Assembly: GCA_025964555.1 (NCBI GenBank)
Contig: JAOPYQ010000027.1
Coordinates: 111,462-175,461 of the forward strand
Source: Thermoleophilia bacterium
Lineage (GTDB): Bacteria; Actinomycetota; Thermoleophilia; Gaiellales; SKUG01
Reading direction: 5' to 3'
Length of the DNA stretch: 64,000 bases
Shown: piece after piece, positions 31,281 to 54,279 of the stretch
Layout of the letters: every line of letters starts with the position of its first letter
Numbering within the stretch: the stretch's first letter is position 1
The notes under the pieces: model-generated
Database searches by the model: none
The model's input: only the letters and a program-made list of their open reading frames with translations
Told to the model about the DNA's origin: nothing
Program-made: the position numbers and the translations under genes

Positions 31281-32450
31281 GTGATCGACGTCTTCCTGGT
31301 GCTCATGGTCGTGGGCGCGGGCGTGCTCGGATGGCGACGAGGCTTGGCCGTGTCGATCGCCGCGGGACTCGTGTTCACCGCGGCGGGACTGCCGCTGGCG
31401 GCGCTCGCGGCGGCGATCGGTCGACCTGCGCCCGCGCTCGCCTTCATCATCGGCGGCATCCTGGGACTGGTGCCGCTGGCGCTGCGCCTCGAGGCGCTGA
31501 CGGACTGGCTCGATGAGCTGCTCGAGAGCGACGCGCTGCAGGTCGCGGACAAGGTCGGTGGCGCCGTCGCCAACACGCTCATCGCTGCGACGCTCGGGTG
31601 GTTCGTCGCGGCGCTCGCCTCGATCGCGCCGGGGGATTCGCCGACGCTCTCGGCGATGCGCAGCTCGGCGGTGTTCGGCGCGCTGGTGGAGGCGGTCCCG
31701 CCGCAGGGCGCGCTCGGCGTGGTGGTGCTGCGCTCGGGGCTGGTGCCGGCGCTCAACGGTCCGCTCGTGCTCGCGGAAGATCCGGATCCGGCGTCGGCGA
31801 CGAAGCCTGCGGTGCTCGCGGCGCGCCGGAGCGTGCTGCAGGTTCGCAGCACGGCGTGCGACAAGATCGTCACCGGCACGGGATGGGTCGCGGGTCCCGG
31901 AATCGTCGTGACGAACGCGCACGTCGTGGCGGGCACGCGGCGGAGCTTCCTGTCAGGCGGTCCGCAGTACACGGGCGCGGCGGCGACGGTGACGGCGTTC
32001 GACCCGGTGAACGACATCGCGGTGCTCGCGCTCGATCCGGGGCAGCGCGCGCAGCTGCCACCGGTGCTGCGCATCGTCGAGCGCGTGCAGCACGGCGAGC
32101 CGGCAGCAGTGATCGGCTATCCGCTCGGCGGGAGCCAGACGGCCGAGCCGGCACGCATTGATCGCGTCGCGCCGTACGACGTGGAGCCGCTCACGGGTGG
32201 GGCGACGTCCGTCGCGAACATCCTCGCCTTCCGCGCGAAGGTGCAGCCCGGCAACTCGGGTGGTCCGGTCGTCGCCGAGGACGGCAGCGTGCTCGGGCTC
32301 GTGGTCGCCCAGGCGCTCGGGCAGCGCACCCAGGCGGCATACGGAGTTGCGAGCGCCGACCTGCTCAAGGCCATCGCCGCCGGTTCGAGCCGCGTGCCGA
32401 TCGCGACGGGCCGCTGCCTCGAGGAAGCCGAGCTCACCACCGAGCGCTAG
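31281..32450 (+). CDS. marP: MarP-type membrane serine protease (CvpA-like 4-TM domain + trypsin-like S1 domain)
   Basis: GTG start. N-terminal TM block. Catalytic triad context TNAHVV, NDIAVL and GNSGGPV. Confidence 0.8.
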   Translation: MIDVFLVLMVVGAGVLGWRRGLAVSIAAGLVFTAAGLPLAALAAAIGRPAPALAFIIGGILGLVPLALRLEALTDWLDELLESDALQVADKVGGAVANTLIAATLGWFVAALASIAPGDSPTLSAMRSSAVFGALVEAVPPQGALGVVVLRSGLVPALNGPLVLAEDPDPASATKPAVLAARRSVLQVRSTACDKIVTGTGWVAGPGIVVTNAHVVAGTRRSFLSGGPQYTGAAATVTAFDPVNDIAVLALDPGQRAQLPPVLRIVERVQHGEPAAVIGYPLGGSQTAEPARIDRVAPYDVEPLTGGATSVANILAFRAKVQPGNSGGPVVAEDGSVLGLVVAQALGQRTQAAYGVASADLLKAIAAGSSRVPIATGRCLEEAELTTER

Positions 32451-35340: not shown

Positions 35341-36858
35341 CTAGCGGATGCCGGGGATCCGCCGCCAGAGCTTCACCACGCGCAGCAGCATCCGCGCGCG
35401 CTTGGGCGAATCGGTCACCCGCAGCAGCAGCTCGTAGCCGCCACCCTTCGCGAACGACTCCACGATCGACTGCTGGCGGCAGTACTTCTGGATGCCCGAC
35501 GCGGCGTGGCGTCGCCCGAGCCCCGACTGGCGGATGCCGCCCATCGGCACGTCGTAGGAGTTGTAGATGAGCAGCGTGGAGTTGACGTTCGCCGTGCCGA
35601 CCTCGAGCCGCCTCGCGATCGCACGTGCCTCGCGTCGCCCACCGGCCCACACCGACCCGTTGAGCCCGAGCTCGGAATCGTTGGCGAGCTCGAGCGCGTG
35701 CTCGGCGCTGCGCACCCGCTCGAGGCGCACCACCGGCCCGAACGTCTCGTCCGCGTGCGCCAGCATCGTCGAGTTCGTGTCGGTCAGCAGCGTCGGCGTC
35801 ACGAACGCCGCGCCCGCCGCGGGCACGTCGGCGCCGCCGACCAGCACGGTCGCGCCCTTGTCGATCGCATCCTGCACGTGCGCGCGCACCTGGCCCGCGT
35901 GCTCGACGCTCGCGAGCGATCCCATGTCAGCGGAGAAGTCCGTCGACCAGCGCACGTCGAGTTCGCCGACGCGCCGGGTGGCGGCGGCGACGAATTCGTC
36001 CCAGATCTCCTCGTGCACGTACACGCGCTCGACGCAGATGCAGGTCTGGCCCGAGTTCGCGAAGCCGCCCGTCATGAGCCCGTGCACGGCGTCGTCGACG
36101 TTCGCGCCCGGCAGCACGAGCATCGGGTTCTTGCCGCCGAGCTCGAGCGAGGACGGGATGAGGCGCTGCGCCGCGCCCGTGGCGATGATGCGCCCGGTGG
36201 CCGTCGAGCCCGTGAAGCCGATCATGTCGACCGCGTCCAAGAGGGGTTCGCCGAGGTCCGGTCCGGTGCCGACGAGCACCTGGAACAGGTCGCCGTCGAG
36301 CCCGGCCTCGATGAGCAGCTCGCGCGCGAGCAGCGTCGACATCGGGGTGACCTCGCTCGGCTTGGTGAGCACCGCGTTGCCGGCGAGCAGTGCCGGCAGC
36401 GCGTCGGCTACGCCGAGGATGAACGGGAAATTCCAGGGCGTGATCATCCCGATCAGGCCGTGCGGGTGCCACGCGGTGCGTGCGCGCGTCAGCAGGGGCA
36501 CGCCGCCGCGTGCCCGCTTCTCGTGCAGGTGGCGGCGGCCGTGCGCGAGGTAGTAGCGCGCGGTGCCGGCCACGGTGACGAGCTCGGCGAGCGCGTCGCG
36601 TCGCGCCTTGCCGTTCTCACGCTGGATGGTGTCCAGGATCTCGTCCTGGCGTTCGAACACCAGGTCGTGGAAGCGGGCGACGACCTTCGCTCGCTCACGC
36701 CACGTTCGCGCGGCCCAGCGTGCCTGCGCCGCGCGAGCTGCACGAGCCATCGCCTCGACGCCCGCCGGATCGGTCGTGGGAATGGACGCGACGAGCTCGC
36801 CCGTGGCCGGGTTGTGCACGTCGAGCTGGGCAGGGGTCGGGGGCGCGGTGGTCTCCAT
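35341..36858 (-). CDS. NAD(P)-dependent aldehyde dehydrogenase (succinate-semialdehyde dehydrogenase-like)
   Basis: Starts at METTAPPTPAQLDVHNPATGE (ATG 36858). Motifs ELGGKNP and GQTCICVER (catalytic Cys). Confidence 0.9.
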   Translation of the reverse strand: METTAPPTPAQLDVHNPATGELVASIPTTDPAGVEAMARAARAAQARWAARTWRERAKVVARFHDLVFERQDEILDTIQRENGKARRDALAELVTVAGTARYYLAHGRRHLHEKRARGGVPLLTRARTAWHPHGLIGMITPWNFPFILGVADALPALLAGNAVLTKPSEVTPMSTLLARELLIEAGLDGDLFQVLVGTGPDLGEPLLDAVDMIGFTGSTATGRIIATGAAQRLIPSSLELGGKNPMLVLPGANVDDAVHGLMTGGFANSGQTCICVERVYVHEEIWDEFVAAATRRVGELDVRWSTDFSADMGSLASVEHAGQVRAHVQDAIDKGATVLVGGADVPAAGAAFVTPTLLTDTNSTMLAHADETFGPVVRLERVRSAEHALELANDSELGLNGSVWAGGRREARAIARRLEVGTANVNSTLLIYNSYDVPMGGIRQSGLGRRHAASGIQKYCRQQSIVESFAKGGGYELLLRVTDSPKRARMLLRVVKLWRRIPGIR

Positions 36859-36904
36859 CGTGTGGTGCGTACCCGGTGGACGGCTACGTGCGATCATTGA
36901 CGGC

Positions 36905-37180
36905 ATGTCGCGCCGAATCCTCAACTGGTGGGAGGGCCTGACCGGACGAGGTCGGGTGCTCGTGGGCATCCCCGTGGCGTGGGTGGCGCTGTTCGCCTTC
37001 CACCAGCTGTTCCCGCTGCTCGACCAGGTCGATCGCGCGATGTACGCGACGATGGAGGCCGTGCCGATCGCGCTCGTGCTCGCGTGGGCCACCCAGAACG
37101 AGATGCGCCGCCGCCTCGAGCGCGCGGACGCGATCTCGAAGTGGGAAGCCGACCACCCCGGCGAGACCTGGCGTGGCTGA
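36905..37180 (+). CDS. Small membrane protein (91 aa), unknown function
   Basis: High-GC3 frame from MSRRILNWWEG. Two hydrophobic segments. Its stop overlaps the next gene's GTG. Confidence 0.55.
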   Translation: MSRRILNWWEGLTGRGRVLVGIPVAWVALFAFHQLFPLLDQVDRAMYATMEAVPIALVLAWATQNEMRRRLERADAISKWEADHPGETWRG

Positions 37181-41794: not shown

Positions 41795-42634
41795 CTACCG
41801 CGTGATCGCGCCGCACGGCGCGGCCACCTCGATGCAGTCCCAGCGCAGCTGGCGCAGGGTCGGCATGCGCCACGCGTTCCAGAAGTCGCCGTGCATGCCG
41901 GTCGGGTCGAGCATGTCGTCGGCGAGGCGCACGATCGTCGGCGACTGCGGCCGCACCGGCCACGTCACGAGCGTCGCCACGCGCATGATCGCCACGGGGT
42001 GGCTCGACGGGCAGACCGTGTGCGGCGTGGCGCCGCCGACCGATGCGTAGGCCATGTGCGACCTGTGGTTGGCGGAATCGAGGTGGCGCCCGTCCCAGCA
42101 GTCGGGGAAGCGCACCCACGCGCCAAGCCGCTCGCCGTTCCGGCAGGCCGGCACGACGTTGGACTGCGTCATGCGCCCGCGGCCCACGCACTGCCAGCTC
42201 GTCACGCGCATCGACTGCGGCGTGGTCGAGTGCAGGTCGCCCGCGATCATCCGCAGCCCGCGCGGCGGAGCGGCGGCCTGGCGCTTGCCGGCGCGTTGGT
42301 AGTACACGGTCATGGCGCCATGCACGAGCGTGCTGCGTACCTCGAGCGTCGGAACCCAGTACGCCGCGGTGTCGCTGCGGCTCGCGCAGCTCGTCGCGGA
42401 ACGCTCGAGCGACGCGGTCGTCGAGGCGGCATCGGCGGAGCGCGCACCGAAGAACTCGTGGCGGTGCGCAGCGCCCGGACGGCCGGGATAGACGATCGGG
42501 TCGTCGTTCGCGACATGCGAGCTCGCGCACTCGACCCTGAAGGAATTCGCGAGCGCGTCGGACGGCGCGGCGAACGTCGTCCCCATGAGTGCGAGGAGCA
42601 GCGTGAGCGTGAGCGGGAGTGGACGGCGGTGCAT
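41795..42634 (-). CDS. Secreted DUF1996-like protein
   Basis: Signal peptide. The pattern DDPIVYPGRPGAAHRHEFFG and a Cys-rich body match what I recall of DUF1996. Its start lies 1 nt after the upstream gene's stop. Confidence 0.7.
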   Translation of the reverse strand: MHRRPLPLTLTLLLALMGTTFAAPSDALANSFRVECASSHVANDDPIVYPGRPGAAHRHEFFGARSADAASTTASLERSATSCASRSDTAAYWVPTLEVRSTLVHGAMTVYYQRAGKRQAAAPPRGLRMIAGDLHSTTPQSMRVTSWQCVGRGRMTQSNVVPACRNGERLGAWVRFPDCWDGRHLDSANHRSHMAYASVGGATPHTVCPSSHPVAIMRVATLVTWPVRPQSPTIVRLADDMLDPTGMHGDFWNAWRMPTLRQLRWDCIEVAAPCGAITR

Positions 42635-42635
42635 G

Positions 42636-44495
42636 TCAGTACGTGCCGTTCGGACCGATCGTGGGGATCGGCTGCGCGCCGGGACAACCGCGGTTGGATC
42701 CGGTCCACGGCAGCTTCACCACGACGCTCGAGGCGTTGTCGTCCTCGTTGGATTCGTAGATGACGTTCGTGGGGTCGGCGACGTGCACGTAGGCGAAGCA
42801 GCCGCGCAGGCCGGTGACGTCGATCCAGTTCTCGTGGTAGGTGGACGGGTACACGTCGCTCCAGCCGACGGACGTGCCGAGCGTGACGGTCTGCTGCGAG
42901 AGGCGCTGGCTGCAGCCCGGGAAGTGGTAGCGGCGCGGTGAGCCGGGGAGCCGGCCGAACCGGCGCTGGAGGTCCCGGAGGCAGTACACCGTCTTGGGGC
43001 CGATCTTGGTGCGTTCGACGGGGTCGCCGGCGGCGTTGAGGCGCCACAGTTCCATGCGCGCGGCGCCGTTCCACTTCCAGTAGCGGTACTGGCCGGGGAC
43101 CGCCTTGAACAGCAGCTTCGCGCCGGTGTCGATGAGCACGGGGGTGTCGTTGACGCGGTGCAGCACCTGTCGCGCGGCCATCGTGAACTGGCTGTCGCGG
43201 CGGCCGCGGAGCGAGGCCGGCCCGGTGCCGCGGCTGTCGAGCGAGTTGGTGCTGTAGAGGATCGAGCGTCGACCGCGGTGGCCAAGGGCGACGTCCGCGG
43301 GCCTGGACATGCGCAGGTTCGGACAGCGGAAGCTCGCCTCGTCCGGGCCGTAGCAGGGGTTGAGGGGGCGGCTGCGCGGGCCGGTGGTCGGATACAGGTA
43401 GTGCAGGCGCCAGGTCGCGTCGTCGGGCATCGGGGTCGGCTCGCCGGGGCGGTCGGGGTGGGGCACGCCACGCCATGACCAGGCGAGTGCGCCGGCATAG
43501 CCCTGGCGAACGTACGCGTCGAGGGCAGTGGACGCGGCGTCGTCGGAGGGGGCGTCGAAGCCGCCGATCATGATCGGGGCGTCGGCGGCCTCGGCGGCGC
43601 GAACGTCGGCAGCGGCGCGGCAGGTGGCGCAGGCGTCGCCGGACATCGTGGTGATGTGCTGGGGGTCGTAGGCGTCGACGCGGAGGCCGGTCCAGACGTC
43701 GATGCGGGTGATGTCGCTCGGGCCGATGAGGATGTTCTTGGTCGGGGCGGCCGCGCGCAGCGGCTCGATGATCCCGGCGGCATGGAGGCGCAGCTGTTCG
43801 CGGGTCGCGAGGGCGGTGTCGGCGAGGCGTTCGGCGCCGGTGACGACCTCCCACCCGAACAGGTGGTGGTGGTTGCGATAGCGCGCGAACAGCGGGCGCA
43901 GCGCGGCGCCGAGCGCGGCGGACTGGGCGGGGTCGGTGATCCAGGAGCGCGGGATGCTGTCCGGGTCGGGAAAGAGCACCGGGAGGAGGAAGACGTCGTT
44001 GCGCTCGGCGAGCGTGAGGGCGACCTCCATGTCGAACACCACGGCGGGGTTGACGGCGGTGGGGGTGCCGTCGGCGGTTCGCTGCACCTGCCAGGCATCG
44101 TTGGGGAAGAGTTCCCAGCGCACGACGCGAACGCCGCGGCGCGACATGTCGCGGAAGATGACGTCGAGCTTGTCCCGGTTGGCACGAACGCCTCGGGTGC
44201 GGCCGCAGCCGAAGTCGCAGCCACGATCGATCCAGGGGAGATTGGCGCCGAGCGCGAACCAGCGGCCGTTGAACGCGTCGAGGGGCGCGATCGGCTGGAC
44301 CGGCGTGGCGGCGCCGGCAGCCGGAGCTGCAGCGAGCGTCGGGGTCGTCGTCGCGGCGGCGGCGGCGGCGAAGGCCGCGAGCACGAGAACGCCGACGAGC
44401 GTGATCGCCCTCCCGTACGCGCGCGCACGCGCGCGCGGGAACGAGAAACGACCGGCGAGACGGTCGAGGATGGTGGATTCCGGATCCAGAAGCAT
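42636..44495 (-). CDS. Secreted two-domain protein: GH5-like TIM-barrel domain + C-terminal lysyl-oxidase-like domain
   Basis: N-terminal anchor or signal (ITLVGVLVLAAFAAAAAA). Mannanase/cellulase-like segments FALGANLPWIDRGCDFG and VRVVRWELFP. The C-terminal ~220 aa are collinear with the LOX catalytic domain (GPKTVYCLRD; GWSDVYPSTYHENWIDVTGLRGCFAYVHVADPTNVIYESNEDDN). Confidence 0.7.
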   Translation of the reverse strand: MLLDPESTILDRLAGRFSFPRARARAYGRAITLVGVLVLAAFAAAAAATTTPTLAAAPAAGAATPVQPIAPLDAFNGRWFALGANLPWIDRGCDFGCGRTRGVRANRDKLDVIFRDMSRRGVRVVRWELFPNDAWQVQRTADGTPTAVNPAVVFDMEVALTLAERNDVFLLPVLFPDPDSIPRSWITDPAQSAALGAALRPLFARYRNHHHLFGWEVVTGAERLADTALATREQLRLHAAGIIEPLRAAAPTKNILIGPSDITRIDVWTGLRVDAYDPQHITTMSGDACATCRAAADVRAAEAADAPIMIGGFDAPSDDAASTALDAYVRQGYAGALAWSWRGVPHPDRPGEPTPMPDDATWRLHYLYPTTGPRSRPLNPCYGPDEASFRCPNLRMSRPADVALGHRGRRSILYSTNSLDSRGTGPASLRGRRDSQFTMAARQVLHRVNDTPVLIDTGAKLLFKAVPGQYRYWKWNGAARMELWRLNAAGDPVERTKIGPKTVYCLRDLQRRFGRLPGSPRRYHFPGCSQRLSQQTVTLGTSVGWSDVYPSTYHENWIDVTGLRGCFAYVHVADPTNVIYESNEDDNASSVVVKLPWTGSNRGCPGAQPIPTIGPNGTY

Positions 44496-44746
44496 GGTCG
44501 CTATGTATCACGCCGAGGCCGGGCCGCGCATGGTGCGACGCCTCCCGAACGATCGATCCGGAGCGTGCTGGAAGGTCTGCAATGCGTCGAAGGCCAAGGG
44601 TGCGGCCCTGCGTCCGACGGGCTTTTTCGTCGTCGAGCGGTAGAATTCCGGAAATTCGAGGGCGTAGGGTGCATGCAGCCTGCGACATGGCGGCCATCGC
44701 GGGCCTTGACCCGAACACACGTCCGTCCCTAAGGTTCCCGCTCCAG

Positions 44747-45673
44747 ATGGCCCCATCCACATGGACATCCCCGCGTCGCCTCGCGACGCTCATGGGATGC
44801 ACGATCGCCGCCCTCGCGCTGCTGCTCCCCGCCGCGCAGGTCTCATCGGCATCGAGCATCGCCCAGCTTGCCTCCCGCCTCGCGGCCGACGCCGGTGGGC
44901 TCGCGGATGCGCGAACGGACCTCGAGCAGGTCCGTGACGAGTTGCGTGCCGTGCGCGGCGAACACCGTCGGCTGCGGGTCGAAGTCGAAGGTCGTCTCGT
45001 CGCGATCTACAAGCACGGCGGTGGCGGCGATGCACTCGCCCGCATGGCCGGCGGCGAGTCGATGCGCGACGTCGGCAACTCGCTCGACGCGCTCGACCAC
45101 GTGGCAGACCAGGACGCCCGGCTGCTCAAGCGCTGGCAGCTGCTCGACGCCAAGCGCACGCGACTGCTCAAGCGGCGAACGCACCTCGAGCACGAGATCG
45201 ACCGGCTCGAGGAGCGAGTGCAGTCCTCGCGTGAGCGACTGAGCGCCGCCGAGGCGCGCGTCGCGAAGGCGCGACGCGACGCGGCGGCGATGGCGACGAT
45301 CCAGGATTCGCCACTGCTGCCGAGGGTCGGCAATCCCGAGGTGACGGCGGTCGAGGCCGAGAGCGGCTCGAACCCGTCCGCGGACCAGCCGATCGGCTTC
45401 CAGCAGTCGGGCACGGCGTCGGTGTACCACGATTCCTTCGCCGGCGAGGAGACCGCCAACGGCGAGGTCTACGACCCGAACGCGTTCACGGCGGCACACC
45501 CGTCGCTGCCGTTCGGCACGTGGGTCACGGTGAGCGGGCCCGGTGGCTCGATCCAGGTGCGCATCAATGACAGGGGCCCCTTCGTCGGTGGCCGCATCAT
45601 CGACCTGTCGCGGGCGGCGGGCGATGCGATCGGGCTGAGCCTCGGTTCGGTGACGCTCAGCGTCGATGCGTAG
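44747..45673 (+). CDS. Secreted coiled-coil + RlpA-like double-psi beta-barrel (DPBB) protein
   Basis: Starts at MAPSTWTSPRRLATLMGCTIAALALLLPAAQ (ATG 44747). C-terminal DPBB: ASVYHDSFAGEETANGEVYDPNAFTAAHPSLPFGTWVTV...VRINDRGPF. Confidence 0.8.
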   Translation: MAPSTWTSPRRLATLMGCTIAALALLLPAAQVSSASSIAQLASRLAADAGGLADARTDLEQVRDELRAVRGEHRRLRVEVEGRLVAIYKHGGGGDALARMAGGESMRDVGNSLDALDHVADQDARLLKRWQLLDAKRTRLLKRRTHLEHEIDRLEERVQSSRERLSAAEARVAKARRDAAAMATIQDSPLLPRVGNPEVTAVEAESGSNPSADQPIGFQQSGTASVYHDSFAGEETANGEVYDPNAFTAAHPSLPFGTWVTVSGPGGSIQVRINDRGPFVGGRIIDLSRAAGDAIGLSLGSVTLSVDA

Positions 45674-45679
45674 ACGGCG

Positions 45680-48085
45680 CTAGTGCGCCCACTCGACTCG
45701 CGGCACGCGGCGCTGGAGCGCGGCGGGCATCCACCAGTTCGCGGGGCCGAGCCAGCGCATCGTGGCGGGCAGCAGCAGCACGCGCACGATCGTCGCGTCG
45801 AGCGCGAGCGCGACCGCCATCCCGAAGCCGATCTGCTTGATGAGCACGAGCTCGGTCGTGGTGAACGCGATGCCGATGACGATGAGGATGAGTGCCGCCC
45901 CGGTGACGAGGGGCGCGGTGGCGGCCACGCCGCGCGCCGTGGCTTCCTGGTCGTCGTGACCGGCCTGGTAGAGCTCAGTGACCTTGGCGAGCATGAACAC
46001 CTCGTAGTCCATCGACAGGCCGAAGAGCAGGCAGAACAGGATGATCGGGATCGTCGCCTCGGTGTAGCCGATCGGCGCGGTGCCGAGCAGGTCGATCCCG
46101 ACGCCGTTCTGGAAGACCGCGATCACCACCCCGAGCGAGGCGAGGATCGACAGCGTGTCGAGGACGATCGCCTTGAACGGAAGCGTCAGCGAGCGGAACG
46201 CGACGGCGAGCACGATGAGCGTCGAGACGAACATGAGGATGAGCGTGTGCGGCATGCTCGACTTGATCGCGTGCAGGAACTCGATCTCGCCCGCGCCCTG
46301 TCCGCTCACGAGCATCTCGACCGGGAAGTTCGTGCCCTGCACCTCGCGCGCAACGGCTCGCGACACGGCGCCGCCATTGCCGAGTGACCGGTCGCCGTAG
46401 GCGTTGAGCAGCGTGCGGCCGCGCTCCTTGTCGATCTTGACGATCTCGGTGCGGCGGATGTGCTCGACGCCGAGCAACTGCGCCTCGATCGTGTCGAGCT
46501 CGGCCTGCTTCGACGTGCTCGCGATCATGATCACCGGCGACTCGACGCGCTCGTCGAACTTCGACTCGAGCTGGCGCTTGGCGACCATCGACAACGAGTC
46601 GGGCGGCAGGATGTCGTCGTGGGGCACGTCGAGGTGCGCGCCGAGCGTCGGGCTTGCGAGCACGACGAGGATGGCGATGCCGCCGAAGATCGACAGGCCC
46701 GGCTTCTTCATGACGAGATGTGCGAGCCGGTACCAGCCCGTCGTCGTGGGGTCGCGGTCCACCTGCACGCGGCGCACGGTCCACTTCTCCACGCGATGGC
46801 CGATCAGGCCGAGCACGGCGGGCAGGAGCGTGAGCGACGCGAGCACCGTGACGGCGACGACGACCACGCCGCCGAGCGCGATCGCGAACATGATCGGCAG
46901 CGGCATCGCGGCGAGTGCGCCGATGCCCGCGATGACCGCAACGCCGCTGATCGCGGCGGCCCGGCCACTGGTGGCGACCGTGGTGATCGTCGCCTCGCGG
47001 ACGGTGCGACCCGCGGCGAGCTCCTCACGGAAGCGCGACACGCCCAGCAACGAGTAGTCGATGCCGAGCCCGAAGCCGAGCATCGATGCGATGTTCATCA
47101 CGAAGATCGACAGGCCGAGCGGGATCGACAGCACGTGCAGGATCGCGAGCGTCACGACCACCGAGGTCAGGCCGACGAGCAGCGGGATGCTCGCGGCGAC
47201 GACCGTGCCGAAGACGAACAGCAGCACGAGCAGCGCGAGTGGCGTACCGATCGCCTCGGCCTTGGCGAGGTCACGCTTGGACAGTGCCGTCGTGTCGGCG
47301 AACACCGCCATCGTTCCCGCGATCTGGAATTCGTCGCGATCGTAGCCGGCCGACTCGATCGTCGCGAGCAGTTCCTCGTAGCCGTTGATCGCGATGTCGT
47401 CGGTGTCGTCGAAGTAGATCGTGAACGCGACGAGCCGCCCGTCCGTCGACGCGCGCGCCTTCCCGACGGACAGCACGTGGGGCACCCGGTACAGCGCCGG
47501 CGTGATCTTGTCGAAGCGCTTCGTTGCTGCATCGAGCGGACCCGGCACCATCACGACCTGCTGGCCGACCGGCATGCGGAACTCGTCGCGCATCTCCTCG
47601 ATGACCTGGATCGCCTCGCCGTCCTTGAGCAGGAAGCCGCCCTGGGTGAACGACTTCTCGGCTGTGCCCGCCAGCGGCAGGCAGGCGAGGACCATCACGA
47701 TCCATCCCCACGTGATCGTCTTGCGCGCCTGCCACACGCCCTCGGCGAATCGGACGAGGCCGCCGCCGGTATCGGGCAGCGACGAGGGCGACGGTGCCGG
47801 CGCTCCGGGCAGCCCCACGAACACCTCGCCGGGAAGCGCGCCTGACGGTGCGCCCGGGTGCGCAGCCGGGATGCCCGAGGCCGCGTCGTCGAACATGAGG
47901 TCGGCGCAGCGCGCCCAGACGAGTCGACCTGCGCCGGCGTCGACGAGGGCGAATGCGCCATCGAGGCGAACGATCGTGCCGCGCAGGCCGTCCTCGGTGG
48001 AGACGATGTCGCCCGGGACGACGCGTGCTGGCACCGGGCGCGCGCGTGGCGGCCGGAGGAGGAAGACGACCGCGACGGCCGCCAT
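45680..48085 (-). CDS. MMPL-family (RND-type) lipid transporter with a ~115-aa N-terminal extension
   Basis: Two 6-TM MMPL blocks (e.g. GLGIDYSLLGVSRFREE and LLFGLSMDYEVFMLAKV). GC3 stays high back to ATG 48085. Alternative start at ATG 47896. Confidence 0.85.
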   Translation of the reverse strand: MAAVAVVFLLRPPRARPVPARVVPGDIVSTEDGLRGTIVRLDGAFALVDAGAGRLVWARCADLMFDDAASGIPAAHPGAPSGALPGEVFVGLPGAPAPSPSSLPDTGGGLVRFAEGVWQARKTITWGWIVMVLACLPLAGTAEKSFTQGGFLLKDGEAIQVIEEMRDEFRMPVGQQVVMVPGPLDAATKRFDKITPALYRVPHVLSVGKARASTDGRLVAFTIYFDDTDDIAINGYEELLATIESAGYDRDEFQIAGTMAVFADTTALSKRDLAKAEAIGTPLALLVLLFVFGTVVAASIPLLVGLTSVVVTLAILHVLSIPLGLSIFVMNIASMLGFGLGIDYSLLGVSRFREELAAGRTVREATITTVATSGRAAAISGVAVIAGIGALAAMPLPIMFAIALGGVVVVAVTVLASLTLLPAVLGLIGHRVEKWTVRRVQVDRDPTTTGWYRLAHLVMKKPGLSIFGGIAILVVLASPTLGAHLDVPHDDILPPDSLSMVAKRQLESKFDERVESPVIMIASTSKQAELDTIEAQLLGVEHIRRTEIVKIDKERGRTLLNAYGDRSLGNGGAVSRAVAREVQGTNFPVEMLVSGQGAGEIEFLHAIKSSMPHTLILMFVSTLIVLAVAFRSLTLPFKAIVLDTLSILASLGVVIAVFQNGVGIDLLGTAPIGYTEATIPIILFCLLFGLSMDYEVFMLAKVTELYQAGHDDQEATARGVAATAPLVTGAALILIVIGIAFTTTELVLIKQIGFGMAVALALDATIVRVLLLPATMRWLGPANWWMPAALQRRVPRVEWAH

Positions 48086-48225
48086 GCATGCAAGTGCCCA
48101 GAAGATGGCGACGTCCCCTTTCCCGCGTCGGACCCGCCCTGCCTGAGCTTCGATTCAGGTTCGCCTCGCGTCTCATGCGCGTGTCGAGTCGATGCTCGGT
48201 ATGGTCGCGACCTGCCGACGACGGT

Positions 48226-48240
48226 GGCCCGAAACGGGCC
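48226..48240. promoter_or_regulatory. Perfect hairpin/palindrome GGCCCG-AAA-CGGGCC overlapping a direct repeat of GAAACGG, in the mmpL / thiolase divergent intergenic region
   Basis: Read directly. GAAACGG occurs at 48231-48237 and 48243-48249, 12 bp apart. Confidence 0.3.
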
Positions 48241-48331
48241 ATGAAACGGCCGTCTGCGGTAATCCCGATGATCTGGTAACGAGGTAGCCGGTTCGCGCCG
48301 GAACGTGCTCCATGACGAGGTACGACACGCG

Positions 48332-49429
48332 ATGACAGCGACCCCATCACGAAACCGCCGAGGCAGCCTGCACCGACAGGTGCGGCCCGCGATCACGCGA
48401 ACGGTGAACCGCCCGACCGTGCGCGCGGCGATCGCCGGTGTCGCCTCGTACCTGCCCGACGAGGTCGTCACCTCCGAGGAGGTCGAGCGCCGCATCGCCG
48501 AGGCGAGCGTCGAGCACGGCTTCGTGCCGGTGCCCGGCATCGTCGAGAAGCTCACGGGCGTTCGCGAGCGCCGCTACAAGCGCCGCGACCAGAACACCTC
48601 CGACCTCGCGGTGGAGGCCGCCATCAAGGCGATGGCGATGGCGGGTGTCACCATCGACGACATCGACCTCATCGTGTTCGGCTCGTCGAGCCAGGACCTC
48701 ATCGAGCCCGCGACCGCGCACATCGTGAGCGCGAAGCTCGGCGGCCGCGCGGTCGTCTTCGACATCAAGAACGCCTGCAACTCGTTCATGAACGGCATGC
48801 AGGTCGCCGATGCGCTCATCCGCACCGGCCAGTACAGGAAGGCGCTCATCTGCTCGGGCGAGTGCCCAAGCGAAGCGGTGCGCTGGGAGATTCGCGACAC
48901 GCAGCACATGAAGGACTCGTTCGCCGGCTACACGTTCGGCGATGCCGGCGCCGCGATGGTCCTCGAAGCGCGCACCGATGGCACCGGCATCCATGAGATC
49001 GACGTGGTCGCAGCGAGCCGGTACTGGGAGCTGTGCACCCTGCCGACCGGCGGCAGCATGCACCCCCGCGACCTGGAGAAGACGTACTTCGAGGGCGACG
49101 GCACGGCGCTGCGCGACGCGTTCATCGAAGTCGGCCCTGGCGTGATCATCGAGCTGTTCAAGCGCACGCGCACCACGTTCGACGACTATGACGTCGTGCT
49201 GTTCCACCAGGTGAGCGAGCAGATGCTCGACGTGTTCCTGAACGTGAGCGGCGTGCCGGAGGAGAAGGTCGTGCGAACGGTGGACCTGCTCGGCAACGTC
49301 GCCAGCACGACGCTGCCGATCCAGCTCGAGAAGGCGATGGAGTCCGGACGCGCCAAGCCCGGCGACAACGTGCTGTGGATCGGCGTCGGAGCGGGCATCA
49401 GCACCGTCGTGATGACCACGCGCCTGTAG
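48332..49429 (+). CDS. KASIII/FabH-like thiolase (OleA-like candidate)
   Basis: Thiolase fold with Cys (DIKNACNSF), His (VLFHQVS) and Asn (LGNVAST). Start is ATG 48332, or GTG 48305 as listed. Confidence 0.85.
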   Translation: MTATPSRNRRGSLHRQVRPAITRTVNRPTVRAAIAGVASYLPDEVVTSEEVERRIAEASVEHGFVPVPGIVEKLTGVRERRYKRRDQNTSDLAVEAAIKAMAMAGVTIDDIDLIVFGSSSQDLIEPATAHIVSAKLGGRAVVFDIKNACNSFMNGMQVADALIRTGQYRKALICSGECPSEAVRWEIRDTQHMKDSFAGYTFGDAGAAMVLEARTDGTGIHEIDVVAASRYWELCTLPTGGSMHPRDLEKTYFEGDGTALRDAFIEVGPGVIIELFKRTRTTFDDYDVVLFHQVSEQMLDVFLNVSGVPEEKVVRTVDLLGNVASTTLPIQLEKAMESGRAKPGDNVLWIGVGAGISTVVMTTRL

Positions 49430-49561
49430 GTCGCGCTGCTCGATGGACCTGTACCTGCCGACCCGATGACACCTCCACGGATCGTCGCGCCCGTGCGACG
49501 CTGCGTGGATCTGCGGCGACGGGCAGGTTCGTGACCTCGGCATGAGGGACAGAACCGAGGC

Positions 49562-50869
49562 ATGTCCGTCGAATCGACCACTCCTGCCTCGACCGGGGCG
49601 TCCCACGCCGCGGAGCCCCGCGACTGGGATCCTGCCGCCCCTGCGAAGCGCCGGAGCGAGCGACGCCTGCTCGCAGCGTCGCGTCCGCTCGCGTGGTTCC
49701 TGCTGCACGCGATCGTGCGCAATCGCCGCGACGTCGTGCACATCCCACGATTGGGCTACGTCATCACGGGCGCGGTCGCGTGTCGCGAAGCGGCCGTCGA
49801 CAGCGAACACTTCCGCAAGGACGGCCCCAAGAGCGCCGGCGCGCTGCTCACCCAGGTGATGGGCAAGACGGCGCTGCTCAACATGGAGGGCCCCGACCAC
49901 GTCGCGCTGCGGCGACGCCTGCAGGGGCTGTTCACGCCCAAGTTCGTCAACGAGCTCGCGGATCGCGCGCTCGCCCCGATCTCGGCGGAGGTCGTCGCCG
50001 ACCTGCAGGCCGGGAAGACGCTCGACGTGTCGCTGCTCGCGCGGCGCGTAACCGGCACGATGATGTGCCACATGGTCGGACTGCGCCTGGAGGGCGAGGC
50101 CCGAGAGAAACGGGCTCGCGAGATGTACAAGCTCGGCCAGCGGCTCGTGGGCATGGTCCCCACGAACATGAAGGAGCTCGACGAGCGCGAGGTCGCCGCA
50201 GCCAAGGCGGTGTTCGAGCAGCTCGTCGACGGCATCGACGAGGTGCACGCCGACGGCGACGAGAACACCATCCCCGGCCGCCTGCGCGAGCTCGGCTTCG
50301 ACCTGGAGGAGACGCGTGGCGTCGTGGGCATGCTGCTCATCGCCGGCACCGAGACGACGTCGACGGCGCTCGTTCGGATCACGTCGCTGCTTTACGACAC
50401 GTCGCAGTGGAAGCGACTGCAGCGCCATCGCGAGCTGCTCGACAACGCGATCGAAGAGGGCCTGCGCTGCGCGACGCCGGTGCCGGTGTCGACTCGAACG
50501 TCCGCCAAGGACTTCACCTTCCACGGCACGAAGATCCGCAAGGACGAGCTCGTGCTCATCGCGTGGGCGCGCGCCATCCGCGACGACCGCGTGATCGAGC
50601 GCGGCACCGAGTTCGACATCGCGCGCGAGATCCCCCGCGAGCTGCGGCTCATCTGGTTCGGCGCCGGCCCACACTTCTGCCTCGGCTACAACCTGGCGAT
50701 GCGCGAGCTCACGACGGTGCTCACCGCGCTGCTCGACGGAGCACCGGAGATCGAGATCACGAAGCGCAAGGCAGCCCGGAAGGTGCTGCTGCCCACATGG
50801 GACGAGCTGTACGTGCGCCGCGCGGGCGGCGCCGCGACGAGCCACGCGCCGGCCGGGGCGAGCGCATGA
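49562..50869 (+). CDS. Cytochrome P450 (first of three)
   Basis: I-helix AGTETT, ExxR (EGLR), heme loop FGAGPHFCLG. Confidence 0.9.
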   Translation: MSVESTTPASTGASHAAEPRDWDPAAPAKRRSERRLLAASRPLAWFLLHAIVRNRRDVVHIPRLGYVITGAVACREAAVDSEHFRKDGPKSAGALLTQVMGKTALLNMEGPDHVALRRRLQGLFTPKFVNELADRALAPISAEVVADLQAGKTLDVSLLARRVTGTMMCHMVGLRLEGEAREKRAREMYKLGQRLVGMVPTNMKELDEREVAAAKAVFEQLVDGIDEVHADGDENTIPGRLRELGFDLEETRGVVGMLLIAGTETTSTALVRITSLLYDTSQWKRLQRHRELLDNAIEEGLRCATPVPVSTRTSAKDFTFHGTKIRKDELVLIAWARAIRDDRVIERGTEFDIAREIPRELRLIWFGAGPHFCLGYNLAMRELTTVLTALLDGAPEIEITKRKAARKVLLPTWDELYVRRAGGAATSHAPAGASA

Positions 50870-52506
50870 CGAGCAGCGCGGTCACCGACGCACGCGACAT
50901 CGCCGGGATCATCGAGCGTCTCCACGGCGCCGGGTTCGAGGTCATGGTCGACGAGCTCGTCCGCGCGGCGCGCACCGTCGGCGACGGCGTGCTCATGACC
51001 GAAGGCAGGCGCACGGTCACGGGCGCGGAGGTCGCGCACGCCTTTGACGTGCTGCCACGCGCGCTCGCGGCGCGCGGGATGCGCCCGGGGCAGGTGGTGC
51101 TGTTCGGCGTGCGTCCGGGAATCGATGCGCTCCTGCTGCTGCTCGGCGCGATGCGAACCGGCGCGATCGTGACGTTCGTGGATCCGGGCGTCGGCAGCGA
51201 GCTGTTCGAGCGACGCCTCGAGCTGCTCGCCCCCGACTGGGTCATGGCCGAATCGCTGCTCTACGTCGCCTCGGCCCCGACCCCGCTGCGCGGGTACCTG
51301 CGCCGTCGTGGGCTGACACTGCCGCGCCTGTCGAAGCTGCCCGGCACGCACATCCGCGTCGGTCGACGATTTCCAGGCGTGCCCAGGGGCGAGTCGCTCG
51401 ACGACCTGCTGGCCGACGCGACCGTCGCGGATCGCGCACTGCCCGCGCTCGACGTCGATGCGCCGAGCCTCGTCATCTTCACGTCCGGCACGACCGGCGA
51501 CCCCAAGGGCGTCCAGCACACGGGCCGCTCCATGGCAGCAGCCGTGCGTCTGTTCCTGCAGCACTTCGAGCTGCCGCCCGATTCGGTGATGTACAACCAC
51601 AACATCCACTCGTTCGTGATGGCGATCCTCGCGCAGGTGCCCACCGTCGTGGAGCCGATGGAGTTCCGGACCACCCGATTCATCGAGCACTGCGAGTCGC
51701 ACGGAGTCACGCACACGTTCGGCCTTCCGGTCGATGCGTACACGATGGTGCAGTACTGCGAAGCGCGCGACCGCAAGCTCCCGCAGTCCCTGCGCCAGAT
51801 GGTGCTGTACTCGGCGCCGGTCACCACGGGCGTGCTCGAGCGCATCCACGCGATCGCGCACCCGCAGCTCCGCGTGACCTGCGCCTACGCGATGACAGAG
51901 GCTGCGCCAGTGGCCTGGATCGACTCGCGTGACAAGTGCGCCTGGAAGGGCGACGGCGACGTCGTGGGGCCGATCGCCCCCGAGGTCGAGTACCGCATCG
52001 ATGCCGACACCCACGAGCTGCACATCAAGGGCGACAACATCCACCGTGGTTACGCGAACATCCACCCCGACCGCATCGAGTGGCACGCGACCGGCGACCT
52101 GGCGCGTGTCGACGAGGCCGGCAACATCGTGCTCATGGGTCGCGCCAAGGACATGATCATCCGCGGCGACTTCAACCTGTATCCGGGCCTGTACGAGGAG
52201 ACCGTCAGCCGCATCCCCGGCGTCGGCGCGTGCGCGTTCATCGGACGCCCGGATCCGGTCACCGCCGACGAGCGTGTCCTGCTGTTCGTCGAGCCCGATC
52301 CGCGCGAGTTCACCCGTGGCGACGGCGACAGGCTCGCGAAGGAGATCATGCGCGCCCTGGAAGGCGGCGGCGAGCTCGGGATCGATCGCAAGGCGCTCCC
52401 GGACGAAGTCCGCGTGCTCGACGCGCTGCCGCGCTCCGGTCGCTCGAGCAAGATCGACCACAAGGCGCTGCGCCAGCTCGCGGTGGAGGACGCCGCGCAT
52501 GCGTGA
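50866..52506 (+). CDS. ANL-superfamily adenylate-forming enzyme (acyl-AMP/CoA ligase or OleC-like beta-lactone synthetase), 546 aa
   Basis: ATG 50866 overlaps the P450 stop (ATGA). Motifs FTSGTTGDPKGV and TGDLARVDEAGN. Confidence 0.85.
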   Translation: MTSSAVTDARDIAGIIERLHGAGFEVMVDELVRAARTVGDGVLMTEGRRTVTGAEVAHAFDVLPRALAARGMRPGQVVLFGVRPGIDALLLLLGAMRTGAIVTFVDPGVGSELFERRLELLAPDWVMAESLLYVASAPTPLRGYLRRRGLTLPRLSKLPGTHIRVGRRFPGVPRGESLDDLLADATVADRALPALDVDAPSLVIFTSGTTGDPKGVQHTGRSMAAAVRLFLQHFELPPDSVMYNHNIHSFVMAILAQVPTVVEPMEFRTTRFIEHCESHGVTHTFGLPVDAYTMVQYCEARDRKLPQSLRQMVLYSAPVTTGVLERIHAIAHPQLRVTCAYAMTEAAPVAWIDSRDKCAWKGDGDVVGPIAPEVEYRIDADTHELHIKGDNIHRGYANIHPDRIEWHATGDLARVDEAGNIVLMGRAKDMIIRGDFNLYPGLYEETVSRIPGVGACAFIGRPDPVTADERVLLFVEPDPREFTRGDGDRLAKEIMRALEGGGELGIDRKALPDEVRVLDALPRSGRSSKIDHKALRQLAVEDAAHA

Positions 52507-53284
52507 CGCGTCCGAGCCCGGGCACGCGACATGGGTCGTGGTGCCCGGCTACAACGAGGAAGCCTGGATCGGATCGACGATCGACTCGCTCGCGCGCCAG
52601 GAGAACGCGTCCGAGCTGACGGTGCTGGTCGTGGACAACGCGAGCACCGACGACACCGCAGGCGCGGTGGCGACGGCTGCCGATCGCAATCCGGGCCTCG
52701 ACGTACGCGTGCTGCGCGAGGACGAGAAGGGCACCGGCGCCGCGAGCGACACCGGCTTCCGGCACGCGATCGCACATGGCGCGACGGTCGTGCTGCGCAC
52801 CGACTCGGACTGCGTCGCCGATCCCGACTGGGCGAGGACGATGCTCGCTGCGGTCAACGACCGCAACCTCGACCTCGTTGCCGGCAACCTGCGCCAGCGC
52901 ACCGACGACGGCATGGGCACGGCGCTCGGTCCGGTGCTCGTCCCCGTCGTGCTCGCGCTCATCCGCTTCATCGGGCGCGTGCGCCCCAACAACAACGACA
53001 ACCCTGCCTACCGGACGAAGTTCGTCGTGACACCGGGCGCGAACCTGGCGATCCGCGCGCAGGCCTACCTCGATTCGGGCGGCTTTCCACGCACCGCGAT
53101 CGAGGACGCCCACGAGGACAAGGCGATCGTCAATGCCGTGCGGCTCGTGAGCGACCGCATCGGCTTCGAGAAGCGGTCGATGGTGCGTTTCTCCAACCGG
53201 CGCGTGGCACGGAACGGGTTGCTCAAGGTGCTGCGCTGGTACTTCAACCATGGCGGAGGCGGCGCGGAGGTGGACGTTCGATGA
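52499..53284 (+). CDS. Family 2 glycosyltransferase (soluble, 261 aa)
   Basis: ATG 52499 overlaps the upstream gene by 8 nt. Motifs VVVPGYNEE, VDNASTDDT and RTDSD (DxD). Confidence 0.8.
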   Translation: MRDASEPGHATWVVVPGYNEEAWIGSTIDSLARQENASELTVLVVDNASTDDTAGAVATAADRNPGLDVRVLREDEKGTGAASDTGFRHAIAHGATVVLRTDSDCVADPDWARTMLAAVNDRNLDLVAGNLRQRTDDGMGTALGPVLVPVVLALIRFIGRVRPNNNDNPAYRTKFVVTPGANLAIRAQAYLDSGGFPRTAIEDAHEDKAIVNAVRLVSDRIGFEKRSMVRFSNRRVARNGLLKVLRWYFNHGGGGAEVDVR

Positions 53285-54279
53285 GCGACGATCAGGCAAT
53301 GACACCTCGCCGGTCACGCGTGGCGGTGACGGGCGCAAGCGGGTTCGTCGGCGGCAAGGCGGCCGACTGGCTCGAGGAGCATGGCTACGAGGTGTACCGC
53401 TTCGGCCGCCGCTCGGTGACCAAGGTGCCCGAGCGCATCCGTGACAGCTATCGCAGCTGGGACATCGAGGCCGGCAAGCTCGACCAGGCGCCCGAGGTCG
53501 ACGCGGTCGTGCACTGCGCCGGCGCCGTCGACGACTGGGGCGTGTACGAGCCCTTCCGCCTCGCGAACGTCGAGGGCACGCGCACCGTGCTGCAGACCTT
53601 TCCCCACGCACGCTTCGTGCACGTCTCGAGTGCGAGCGTCTACGACCCCCACGCGGACCACTCCCTCGTGCGCGAGGACCAGGCGGACCCGGCCGACGAA
53701 GCCGACACCGCGCGCGTCACGTGGCTCAACCCCTACGGGCGTACCAAGCGCATGGCCGAGAACGTCGTCGCCACCACCGCCACCAACCGCTCGATCATCC
53801 TGCGCCCGCACGCCGTGTATGGCCCGGGTGACACGCAGCTGCTGCCGCGACTGACATCGCGCATCCGCTTCGGTCGTCTCATCGTCGCAGGAGACGAGAC
53901 GGTGCGCGTATCGCTCACGCACGTCGACAACTTCTCCTACGCGATCCAGCTCGCGATCGAGTCCGACGCCACCGGGGCATTCAACATCTCCGACCCGACC
54001 GCACCCACGCTCGGCGAGTGCCTCACGACGGTGCTGCGCACGATCGGCAAGCCCGAGCGACTGCTGTGGCTGCCGACAGGACCCGTCACCGCGCTCGCAT
54101 TCGTGATGGAGGCGGCGTGCGGGTTCGGCCGCGGACCCAAGCCGCCGATCACGCGCTTCCAGCTGTCGCACCTGACGCGCGACTTCGTCTACGACCTGAC
54201 GAAGGCGCGCGAGCAGCTCGGCTACGACCCGGCGATCGACCTGCCGCAGGGGCTCGAGACCGTCGACGTGCCTGCGTAG
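53281..54279 (+). CDS. NAD-dependent epimerase/dehydratase-family SDR (3-beta-HSD/OleD-like), 332 aa
   Basis: ATGA overlap at 53281. Rossmann VTGASGFVGG; catalytic YGRTK. Confidence 0.8.
   Translation: MSDDQAMTPRRSRVAVTGASGFVGGKAADWLEEHGYEVYRFGRRSVTKVPERIRDSYRSWDIEAGKLDQAPEVDAVVHCAGAVDDWGVYEPFRLANVEGTRTVLQTFPHARFVHVSSASVYDPHADHSLVREDQADPADEADTARVTWLNPYGRTKRMAENVVATTATNRSIILRPHAVYGPGDTQLLPRLTSRIRFGRLIVAGDETVRVSLTHVDNFSYAIQLAIESDATGAFNISDPTAPTLGECLTTVLRTIGKPERLLWLPTGPVTALAFVMEAACGFGRGPKPPITRFQLSHLTRDFVYDLTKAREQLGYDPAIDLPQGLETVDVPA

Follow-up and report, generated by a model that had tools for sequence, protein, structure and literature searches.

A predicted fusion of a catalytically degenerate GH5-type barrel and a copper-less lysyl oxidase-family domain in Thermoleophilia

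The defining feature of lysyl oxidases (LOX) is a copper site, which both makes the lysyl tyrosylquinone (LTQ) cofactor and works with it. Copper-site mutants of LOXL2 form no LTQ (PMC5899467). In a survey of LOX evolution, the red alga Cyanidioschyzon merolae was reported as the only group without a conserved histidine core, and the prokaryotic LOX proteins of published surveys are mostly single-domain (PMC4448552); a study of Cyanidium noted that the lysine and the tyrosine are retained without the copper site (PMC6508830). Here we describe a gene that lies in a stretch of 64,000 nucleotides (the window; positions 111,462 to 175,461 of contig JAOPYQ010000027.1, from a Thermoleophilia bacterium) and that codes for a protein of 619 amino acids, in which a barrel of the GH5 beta-mannanase type is joined to a LOX-family domain. 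This is a new, lineage-specific fusion, in which a GH5 pseudoenzyme is joined to a LOX-family domain from a large, so far undescribed branch without the copper ligands. An earlier note, made from the letters of the window without database searches, had proposed that both domains may be catalytically divergent, and this was borne out by glycine at both GH5 glutamate sites and Tyr/Tyr/Lys at the LOX copper ligands; judging from these alignments, neither domain should be able to work by the canonical mechanism of its family.

The similarity of the C-terminal domain to LOX is faint when searched for directly. The Pfam model Lysyl_oxidase (PF01186) matched residues 499-591 of the protein with 15.7 bits (E 0.012), below its gathering score of 20.4, and gave weak matches in 31 of 45 sequences of the fused family (best E 0.0015, all E up to 0.1). 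Direct hhalign comparison of the family profile with the LOXL2 segment was not significant (probability 2.6%), a search of the PDB sequences with the profile of the C-domain returned spurious CDGSH matches only (E ~0.7), and a low-confidence AlphaFold2 (AF2) model of the C-domain alone (mean predicted local distance difference test score, pLDDT, of 40.2) gave only noise with Foldseek (best E 0.5). The results of a search with a 252-residue C-terminal profile of the family against 1.84 billion cluster representatives showed matches to 2163 proteins at E <= 0.001 and to 702 at E <= 1e-10, of which the closest were mostly stand-alone proteins of 250-310 amino acids with signal peptides. The same profile found bacterial LOX proteins with the H-x-H-W-H motif (E 1e-20 to 1e-25), whose scores on PF01186 are 48-64 bits. 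Among these, P0172 gave a match to the structure 5ZE3 of human LOXL2 (E 3.5e-5) in which the motifs of the copper site, the Lys and the Tyr all fall in register. When ten classical bacterial LOX were compared with the query family by hhalign, the probability was 100% (E 2.5e-41, 208 columns, 31% identity). The C-domain is thus a true homologue of the LOX catalytic domain, a relationship that is robust only through the bacterial LOX intermediates. The resemblance that the earlier note had seen by eye was confirmed by way of these intermediates; as to whether the domain scores as a lysyl oxidase, it does not on the direct Pfam threshold and does, decisively, through the intermediates.

We then compared individual residues, for which hmmalign, hhalign and an independent MAFFT alignment with the LOXL2 segment gave the same pairings; the roles of the LOXL2 residues were taken from PMC5899467. 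Two pairings that had been proposed by eye, GPKTVYCLRD with HKASFCLED and GWSDVY...ESNEDDN with GCYDTY...ESDYTNN, were recovered in the alignment of P0172 with 5ZE3, in hhalign and in MAFFT. The Lys/Tyr cofactor context is kept, as had been thought: the LTQ precursors K501 and Y549, aligned to LOXL2 K653 and Y689, are invariant in the fused family and conserved across the wider clade described below. In the alignment, the residues E722, D724, N727 and N728 of the LOXL2 Ca2+-binding loop correspond to E581, N583, D586 and N587, and the Ca2+-site residues D549/L550 correspond to N393-L394.

The register proposed earlier for the copper site (WEWHSCHQHYH with YWKWNGAARME) was off by six, since HQHYH aligns with YRYWK, six residues upstream (Table 1). 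Aligned through the bacterial LOX, the copper motif and the beta-strand after it (the ARMELWRL region) need no gap, and there is only a short one in the hairpin turn before the Lys motif; this register is supported by the hhalign match at E 2.5e-41. The register based on the W-x-W match (WEW with WKW), which the direct hhalign of the family profile with the LOXL2 segment reproduces, was rejected; it needs two gaps of four residues and has a probability of 2.6%, and the match is coincidental. The absence of the copper His cluster, which had also been noticed, holds in either register, with Y470, Y472 and K474 at the ligand positions. An alternative metal site, of His or of other residues, was rejected because no set of conserved His, Cys or Met was found. 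The loss of the His3 copper site should preclude a self-generated LTQ, because copper-site mutants of LOXL2 lack the cofactor (PMC5899467), and the C-domain would for that reason not be a canonical copper/LTQ amine oxidase.

The replacement of the copper ligands is shared by many other proteins. We defined a copper-less clade operationally by three motifs, [Y/F/W]-W-K where classical LOX has H-W-H, K-x-x-Y-C-L-R-D-L, and G-T-S-V-G-W-[S/A]-D-x-Y-P, a pattern that the query shows (YWK, GPKTVYCLRDL and GTSVGWSDVYP). A census of 104 cluster representatives more distant than the close family, all with the motif covered, which supplies the survey of bacterial LOX homologues for the His triad that the earlier note had proposed, showed [Y/F/W]-W-K in 87/104 and H-W-H in 12/104, the other five (5/104) being corrupted by frameshifts. 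Among the 87 clade sequences, K474 and W473 were 100% conserved, position 472 was occupied by Y (71), W (8) or F (8), and position 470 was variable. The clade keeps K501, Y549, their flanking motifs and the Ca2+ loop, and D508 and E482 are retained. Clade-specific residues were found at R507 (CLRDL), A478/A479, W484, Y553 and an extra Cys pair (C381/C391); K474, R507, A478/A479, W484 and Y553 are invariant residues newly gained by the subclade. No conserved His was present in any column of the clade, the best being 57% at position 571.

A word-indexed search from one stand-alone member retrieved at least 2194 clusters at E <= 1e-10, many of which have a precomputed PF01186 match, and some stand-alone members pass the PF01186 threshold (21-29 bits). 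Some members, from metagenome-assembled genomes (MAGs) of Solirubrobacterales or Actinomycetota, have been named automatically as 'lysyl oxidase family protein'. The [Y/F/W]-W-K variant defines a very large clade, made up mostly of stand-alone secreted proteins of soil Actinomycetota, of which our literature searches found no published description as a bacterial copper-less LOX clade. The combination of domains had been called unusual, and this stands for the fusion, which is lineage-specific; a copper-less LOX-type domain alone is not rare and belongs to a very abundant stand-alone family. Another match of the C-terminal profile, P0187 (832 amino acids), has two LOX-like domains with neither H-x-H-W-H nor Y-W-K (GTQWRYDN and DGGHWSYGH), each preceded by a CxxCH motif of the heme-c type, and may represent a third variant of the LOX metal site.

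The N-terminal domain was recognised by comparison with structures. Searches of the PDB with the protein by phmmer gave the animal GH5 beta-mannanases 3VUP and 2C0H, and the 45-sequence family profile matched 2C0H (E 2.6e-13), 4OOU (3.1e-11), 3VUP (1.2e-10) and 5Y6T (3.7e-8), as well as the mannanase of Trichoderma reesei (E 1.6e-5). The best Foldseek matches of the AF2 model in the PDB were the mannanases 4OOZ (E 6e-13), 2C0H (E 1e-12), 5Y6T and 3VUP, all within E 6e-13 to 2e-12, with template modelling (TM) scores of 0.63-0.69 on the target. Several hallmarks of the subfamily are kept, namely NLPW...DFG, P87, D94-F95-G96, R126-W127, GWE (W215-E216) and WSW (W339-S340-W341). The N-domain descends from a barrel of the GH5 beta-mannanase type, as the earlier note had supposed. 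The Pfam search that had been suggested was negative, with no match of PF00150 to the 619-aa protein and only P0040 matching among the family (E 9.6e-6), and the GH5 similarity comes from the profile and fold comparisons with the PDB. A word-indexed homologue search with the N-domain alone returned one family member and no intact GH5 ancestor.

Both catalytic glutamates of the barrel are replaced by glycine. In all HMMER alignments, GWD(L/I)MNEPE of the mannanases pairs with GWEVVTGAE, which places Gly220, at the end of model strand 214-219, in the acid/base column; that column holds Glu in 7 of the 45 family members, all of them in the most divergent subgroup (B), which reads NEPE, DEPE, SEPE or SEAE. 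Similarly, P(I/M)V(V/I)GEF pairs with PIMIGGF and places Gly312, at the end of model strand 308-313, in the nucleophile column, which is occupied by G, A, T, S or F and by E or D in none of the 45 aligned sequences (0/45). The two sites fall on beta4 and beta7, as is to be expected in clan GH-A, and the structure-based alignment (AF2 and Foldseek) and HMMER agreed in placing glycine at both. The reading by eye of WEVVTGAE, without a canonical NEP motif, and of IMIGGFD, with a Gly at the nucleophile, was therefore correct. E216 and E222 were considered as substitute catalytic residues and rejected, both being present at the same columns in active mannanases. With both catalytic Glu changed to Gly, the N-domain cannot be a classical retaining glycosidase; it is a conserved and catalytically degenerate GH5 derivative, not a decaying remnant. 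A near-invariant Cys pair, C93-x3-C97, flanks the DFG motif (DRGCDFGC, residues 90-97; window 44216-44228, minus strand); it is absent from the aligned mannanase structures and may form a disulfide or another site.

The open reading frame (ORF) is the sole long one at its location with database support, and its product is identical to a 619-aa hypothetical protein of a Thermoleophilia MAG. The family comprises at least 47 full-length homologues, one identical and 46 more at 47-79% identity, nearly all without annotation and all with the same architecture. A scan of genome contigs found the fused form at 12 loci, in Thermoleophilia/Gaiellales MAGs only; the patterns used were very specific and recovered only the fused family. 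The GH5-LOX fusion is specific to this lineage. No NCBIfam match was obtained with the 619-aa protein. The mean pairwise identity in the family was 0.70 for the C-domain versus 0.50 for the N-domain, and a pseudogene or a protein in decay was ruled out by the strong conservation and the new clade-specific invariant residues. The AF2 model of the whole protein had a mean pLDDT of 86.3 and a predicted TM score (pTM) of 0.80, with a pLDDT of about 90 in the interdomain linker, which suggests that the two domains are held in a fixed arrangement.

At the N-terminus, the AF2 model has a helix at residues 30-46 and the Kyte-Doolittle hydropathy reaches its maximum of 2.3 at residues 31-49. The succession of a basic stretch, a hydrophobic helix and an Ala/Thr/Pro-rich linker indicates that the protein is exported or membrane-anchored, and the two-domain protein is predicted to be exported by means of either a signal peptide or an N-terminal anchor. 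The earlier description of a secreted protein stands as to export; a signal peptide and a membrane anchor both fit the helix. One fusion variant, P0049 (831 amino acids), has additional N-terminal RTX-type GGxGxD calcium-binding repeats in front of its two domains, the degenerate GH5 barrel and a LOX domain of the Y-W-K type, and these repeats are consistent with an extracellular location.

Table 1. Coordinates in the window of the fusion gene, its domains and motifs, and the neighbouring genes
Feature	Position in window	Strand	Remarks
Whole ORF, P0001	42636..44495	-	619 aa; hypothetical protein JWL76_1597, Thermoleophilia MAG
N-terminal region: basic stretch and hydrophobic helix (residues ~28-47)	44355..44495	-	Signal peptide or membrane anchor
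Ala/Thr/Pro-rich low-confidence linker, residues 48-70	44286..44354	-	pLDDT <50 at residues 48-59
GH5-fold (beta/alpha)8 barrel, residues ~71-366, predicted catalytically degenerate	43398..44285	-	Foldseek and family profile vs PDB
TGAE, residues 219-222, at GH5 NEPE position, end of strand beta4	43830..43841	-	Acid/base Glu replaced by Gly220
GGFD, residues 311-314, at GH5 GEF position, end of strand beta7	43554..43565	-	Nucleophile Glu replaced by Gly312
Lysyl oxidase-family domain, residues ~375-619, copper-less [Y/F/W]-W-K type	42639..43373	-	
YRYWK, residues 470-474, at copper-binding H-x-H-[W/Y]-H	43074..43088	-	hhalign, hmmalign, MAFFT, census
Cu ligand LOXL2 His626			Query Y470
Cu ligand LOXL2 His628			Query Y472
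Cu ligand LOXL2 His630			Query K474
GPKTVYCLRD, residues 499-508	42972..43001	-	K501 = LTQ lysine (LOXL2 K653); R507 clade-specific
GWSDVY, residues 544-549	42849..42866	-	Y549 = LTQ tyrosine and fourth metal ligand position (LOXL2 Y689)
ESNEDDN, residues 581-587	42735..42755	-	Corresponds to LOXL2 Ca2+-binding loop
DUF1996 gene, 279 aa, signal peptide	41795..42634	-	Pfam E 1.1e-45; translationally coupled to fusion gene
Coiled-coil and DPBB_1 (RlpA-like) protein gene	44582..45673	+	Divergently transcribed; Pfam DPBB_1 E 4.3e-21; conserved neighbour
MMPL transporter gene	45680..48085	-	Conserved neighbour
KAS III	48305-49429	+	
AMP-binding/FAAL-like enzyme	49693-52506	+	
NAD-dependent epimerase/reductase	52531-54279	+	

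The fusion gene is followed by a DUF1996 gene at a junction that reads TGA-c-ATG, with one nucleotide between stop and start, and the two are predicted to be co-transcribed, the DUF1996 protein being secreted. This pairing is kept at loci L003, L005, L010-L013 and L020, and the order MMPL / DPBB / fusion / DUF1996 recurs in homologous contigs (55-78% identity). AMP-binding and MMPL genes also flank the fusion homologues in L003 and L005. The fusion gene lies in a conserved block of envelope-type genes, of the FAAL/MMPL and RlpA-like types. The subgroup with the acid/base Glu (~49-51% identity) is without these neighbours, and the DUF1996 pairing was found only in the subgroup without that Glu. 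No solved relative of DUF1996 was found; fungal DUF1996 domains have been reported in fusion with CBM1, CBM6 or WSC modules (PMC7679414). The scan for promoters and terminators at the locus gave results at chance level, and the G+C content is about 70% across the whole window. A gene set of the lipid-export type, from the MMPL gene to the epimerase/reductase gene (window 45680-54279), adjoins the fusion locus. An aldehyde dehydrogenase gene is located about 5 kb from the fusion gene (window 35341-37092, minus strand), and in L005 (9029-10603; L005/L006) such a gene directly follows DUF1996. Amine oxidases produce aldehydes; the proximity of these genes is probably backbone synteny.

The neighbours of the stand-alone relatives were clustered over 80 loci from soil metagenomes, of which 36 had enough upstream sequence. 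A membrane serine protease with CvpA (Colicin_V) and Trypsin_2 domains (MarP-like architecture) was present upstream on the same strand in 14 of the 36, and directly abuts the LOX-like gene in 6-7 of the 14. Examples are L029, L043, L069, L082, L083 and L097, among others, in which the protease lies ~110-170 bp upstream of the LOX domain. In L003, L012 and L013, weaker homologues of the protease were seen at a distance of 2-3 kb from the fusion, and there is another in the window at 31851-32423.

As a whole, the protein is in our view best explained, with moderate probability, as a dead glycan-recognition barrel joined to a metal-free pocket of the LOX fold, working with the DUF1996 protein and being neither a canonical oxidase nor a canonical glycosidase. 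Most likely, the ammonium group of the invariant K474 would replace the Cu(II) ion next to Y549, and the resulting metal-free pocket would now be cationic (K474, R507 and K501). The dead barrel would most likely be a glycan-recognition module, by analogy with other glycosidase-derived pseudoenzymes, and could bring the LOX-fold domain, the more strongly conserved of the two, to a polymer of the cell envelope or outside the cell, together with DUF1996. So strong a constraint on the pocket speaks for the binding of a ligand or for new chemistry, and not for decay. The suggestion of a role in the cell envelope comes from the gene neighbourhood only. Several points weigh against this explanation. 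The invariance of both LTQ precursors would be expected if some quinone chemistry survived, and the authors who described the His-less LOX-like (LOXL) proteins of red algae assumed that LTQ is present in them (PMC6508830). The acid/base Glu kept by subgroup B leaves room for non-classical glycosidase chemistry in the family. The neighbourhood evidence for an envelope role is weak, and what else recurs next to the stand-alone genes is of the housekeeping kind (topA, prfA, sua5, GT4 and DUF354).

A cryptic amine oxidase, in which the Lys-Tyr quinone is still formed by means of a non-His metal site (the Tyr472/Tyr549 phenolates and Lys474) or with a trans-acting maturation partner such as DUF1996, is an improbable alternative. 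It would account for the persistence of K501 and Y549 in the family and in the wider clade, red-algal LOXL without the His core likewise keeps K and Y (PMC6508830), and the tightly coupled DUF1996 has no known function. However, LOXL2 makes no LTQ once its copper site is mutated (PMC5899467). Position 470 varies, and position 472 is Phe or Trp in 16 of the 87 clade sequences, which indicates that the Tyr472 hydroxyl is dispensable. There is no conserved set of His, Cys or Met to bind a metal, and the neighbour-clustering survey showed no DUF1996 among the recurrent neighbours of stand-alone members. The barrel could instead be the active part of a non-classical glycoside-active enzyme, using substrate assistance or other residues, or acting as a transglycosylase or lyase, with the LOX-fold beta-sandwich as no more than an accessory or a binding part. 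We regard this as very doubtful, since the protein and its closest relatives have Gly, Ala, Arg or Ser at the two catalytic positions, E216 and E222 occur at the same columns in active mannanases and are thus not replacements for the lost Glu, and the C-domain, besides being better conserved than the barrel, stands alone in thousands of proteins. What speaks for it is that subgroup B keeps [N/D/S]EPE without the nucleophile, a pattern compatible with substrate-assisted mechanisms, that subfamily-specific motifs of the barrel are retained, and that many GH-A enzymes carry a C-terminal beta-sandwich, as seen in long Foldseek alignments.

Pseudoenzymes commonly become independent of a metal when a Lys ammonium takes over its former site. 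This would fit a purely structural or adhesive envelope protein, with both domains as inert scaffolds, K474 replacing Cu2+ to stabilise the hairpin and the Lys and Tyr of the former cofactor being structural; the beta-sandwich of the LOX core, with its weak CARDB-like matches, and the envelope gene neighbourhood agree with such a role. We nevertheless consider it unlikely, given the very strong conservation of the C-domain, the gain by the clade of the polar invariant R507 with D508 and E482 retained, and the abundance of small stand-alone secreted versions, which argues for an autonomous activity. It is also conceivable, at a similarly low probability, that the [Y/F/W]-W-K clade is a copper-independent enzyme class built on the LOX fold, with the Lys ammonium standing for Cu(II) beside Tyr and Lys. 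Such enzymes might follow a metal-free route to a Lys-Tyr-derived cofactor or use a new Tyr/Lys/Arg acid-base chemistry on an envelope polymer, the barrel serving for targeting and DUF1996 as a partner.

These results bear on the biochemistry of LOX, on the need for copper beyond cofactor biogenesis and on the role of the prokaryotic LOX proteins. The clade is a natural experiment, a large and constrained bacterial branch in which all three copper ligands are gone and both cofactor precursors are kept, and it allows quinone formation and the ligand of the pocket to be addressed directly. The fusion to a dead mannanase barrel and the coupled DUF1996 may point to the substrate. For annotation, the name 'lysyl oxidase family protein' given to stand-alone members of the clade should not be taken to mean active copper amine oxidases, nor is the fused form, now a 'hypothetical protein', to be annotated as a mannanase with activity.

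Comparison with described GH5 proteins showed that the beta-mannanases of molluscs, collembolans and earthworms (2C0H, 3VUP, 4OOU/4OOZ and 5Y6T), which we take to be GH5_10 in CAZy, are the best matches of the barrel in both sequence and fold. They share with it NLPW...DFG, GW[D/E] and xxxG-x-F on beta7, and differ from the query in that its barrel has both Glu changed to Gly, carries the extra C93-x3-C97 and is fused to a LOX-like domain. The GH1-like domains of alpha-Klotho and the chitinase-like lectins are TIM-barrel glycosidase folds in which a catalytic Glu has been lost and which now work in binding or as scaffolds; they belong to other GH families and other organisms, and we know of no glycosidase-derived pseudoenzyme of this kind that is fused to an oxidase-family domain.

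Comparison with described LOX proteins showed that animal LOX/LOXL2 (PF01186; 5ZE3) has a homologous domain with the same LTQ Lys/Tyr, CxxD, Ca2+-loop residues and P-[D/N]-L motif. LOXL2 differs by His626/628/630 versus Y470/Y472/K474, and the query is without SRCR or propeptide regions. The red-algal LOX-like proteins (Cyanidium caldarium and Cyanidioschyzon merolae), compared here by published description only, are also secreted, with the LTQ Lys/Tyr kept and the His copper site lost (PMC6508830, PMC4448552); they differ in being single-domain proteins of eukaryotes. Outside the clade, the nearest relatives by sequence are the bacterial and archaeal LOX with H-x-H-W-H (for example the LOX of Haloterrigena turkmenica, PMC6452851, and P0148-P0195), whose secreted, disulfide-containing, single-domain layout is shared with the copper-less clade. 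These LOX differ in having the full His triad, in being without A478/A479, W484, Y553 and the C381-C391 pair, and in being without the clade-specific R507, except for P0170 and P0172. These two classical H-x-H-W-H proteins already have the C[L/A]RDN typical of the copper-less clade and may be transitional forms.

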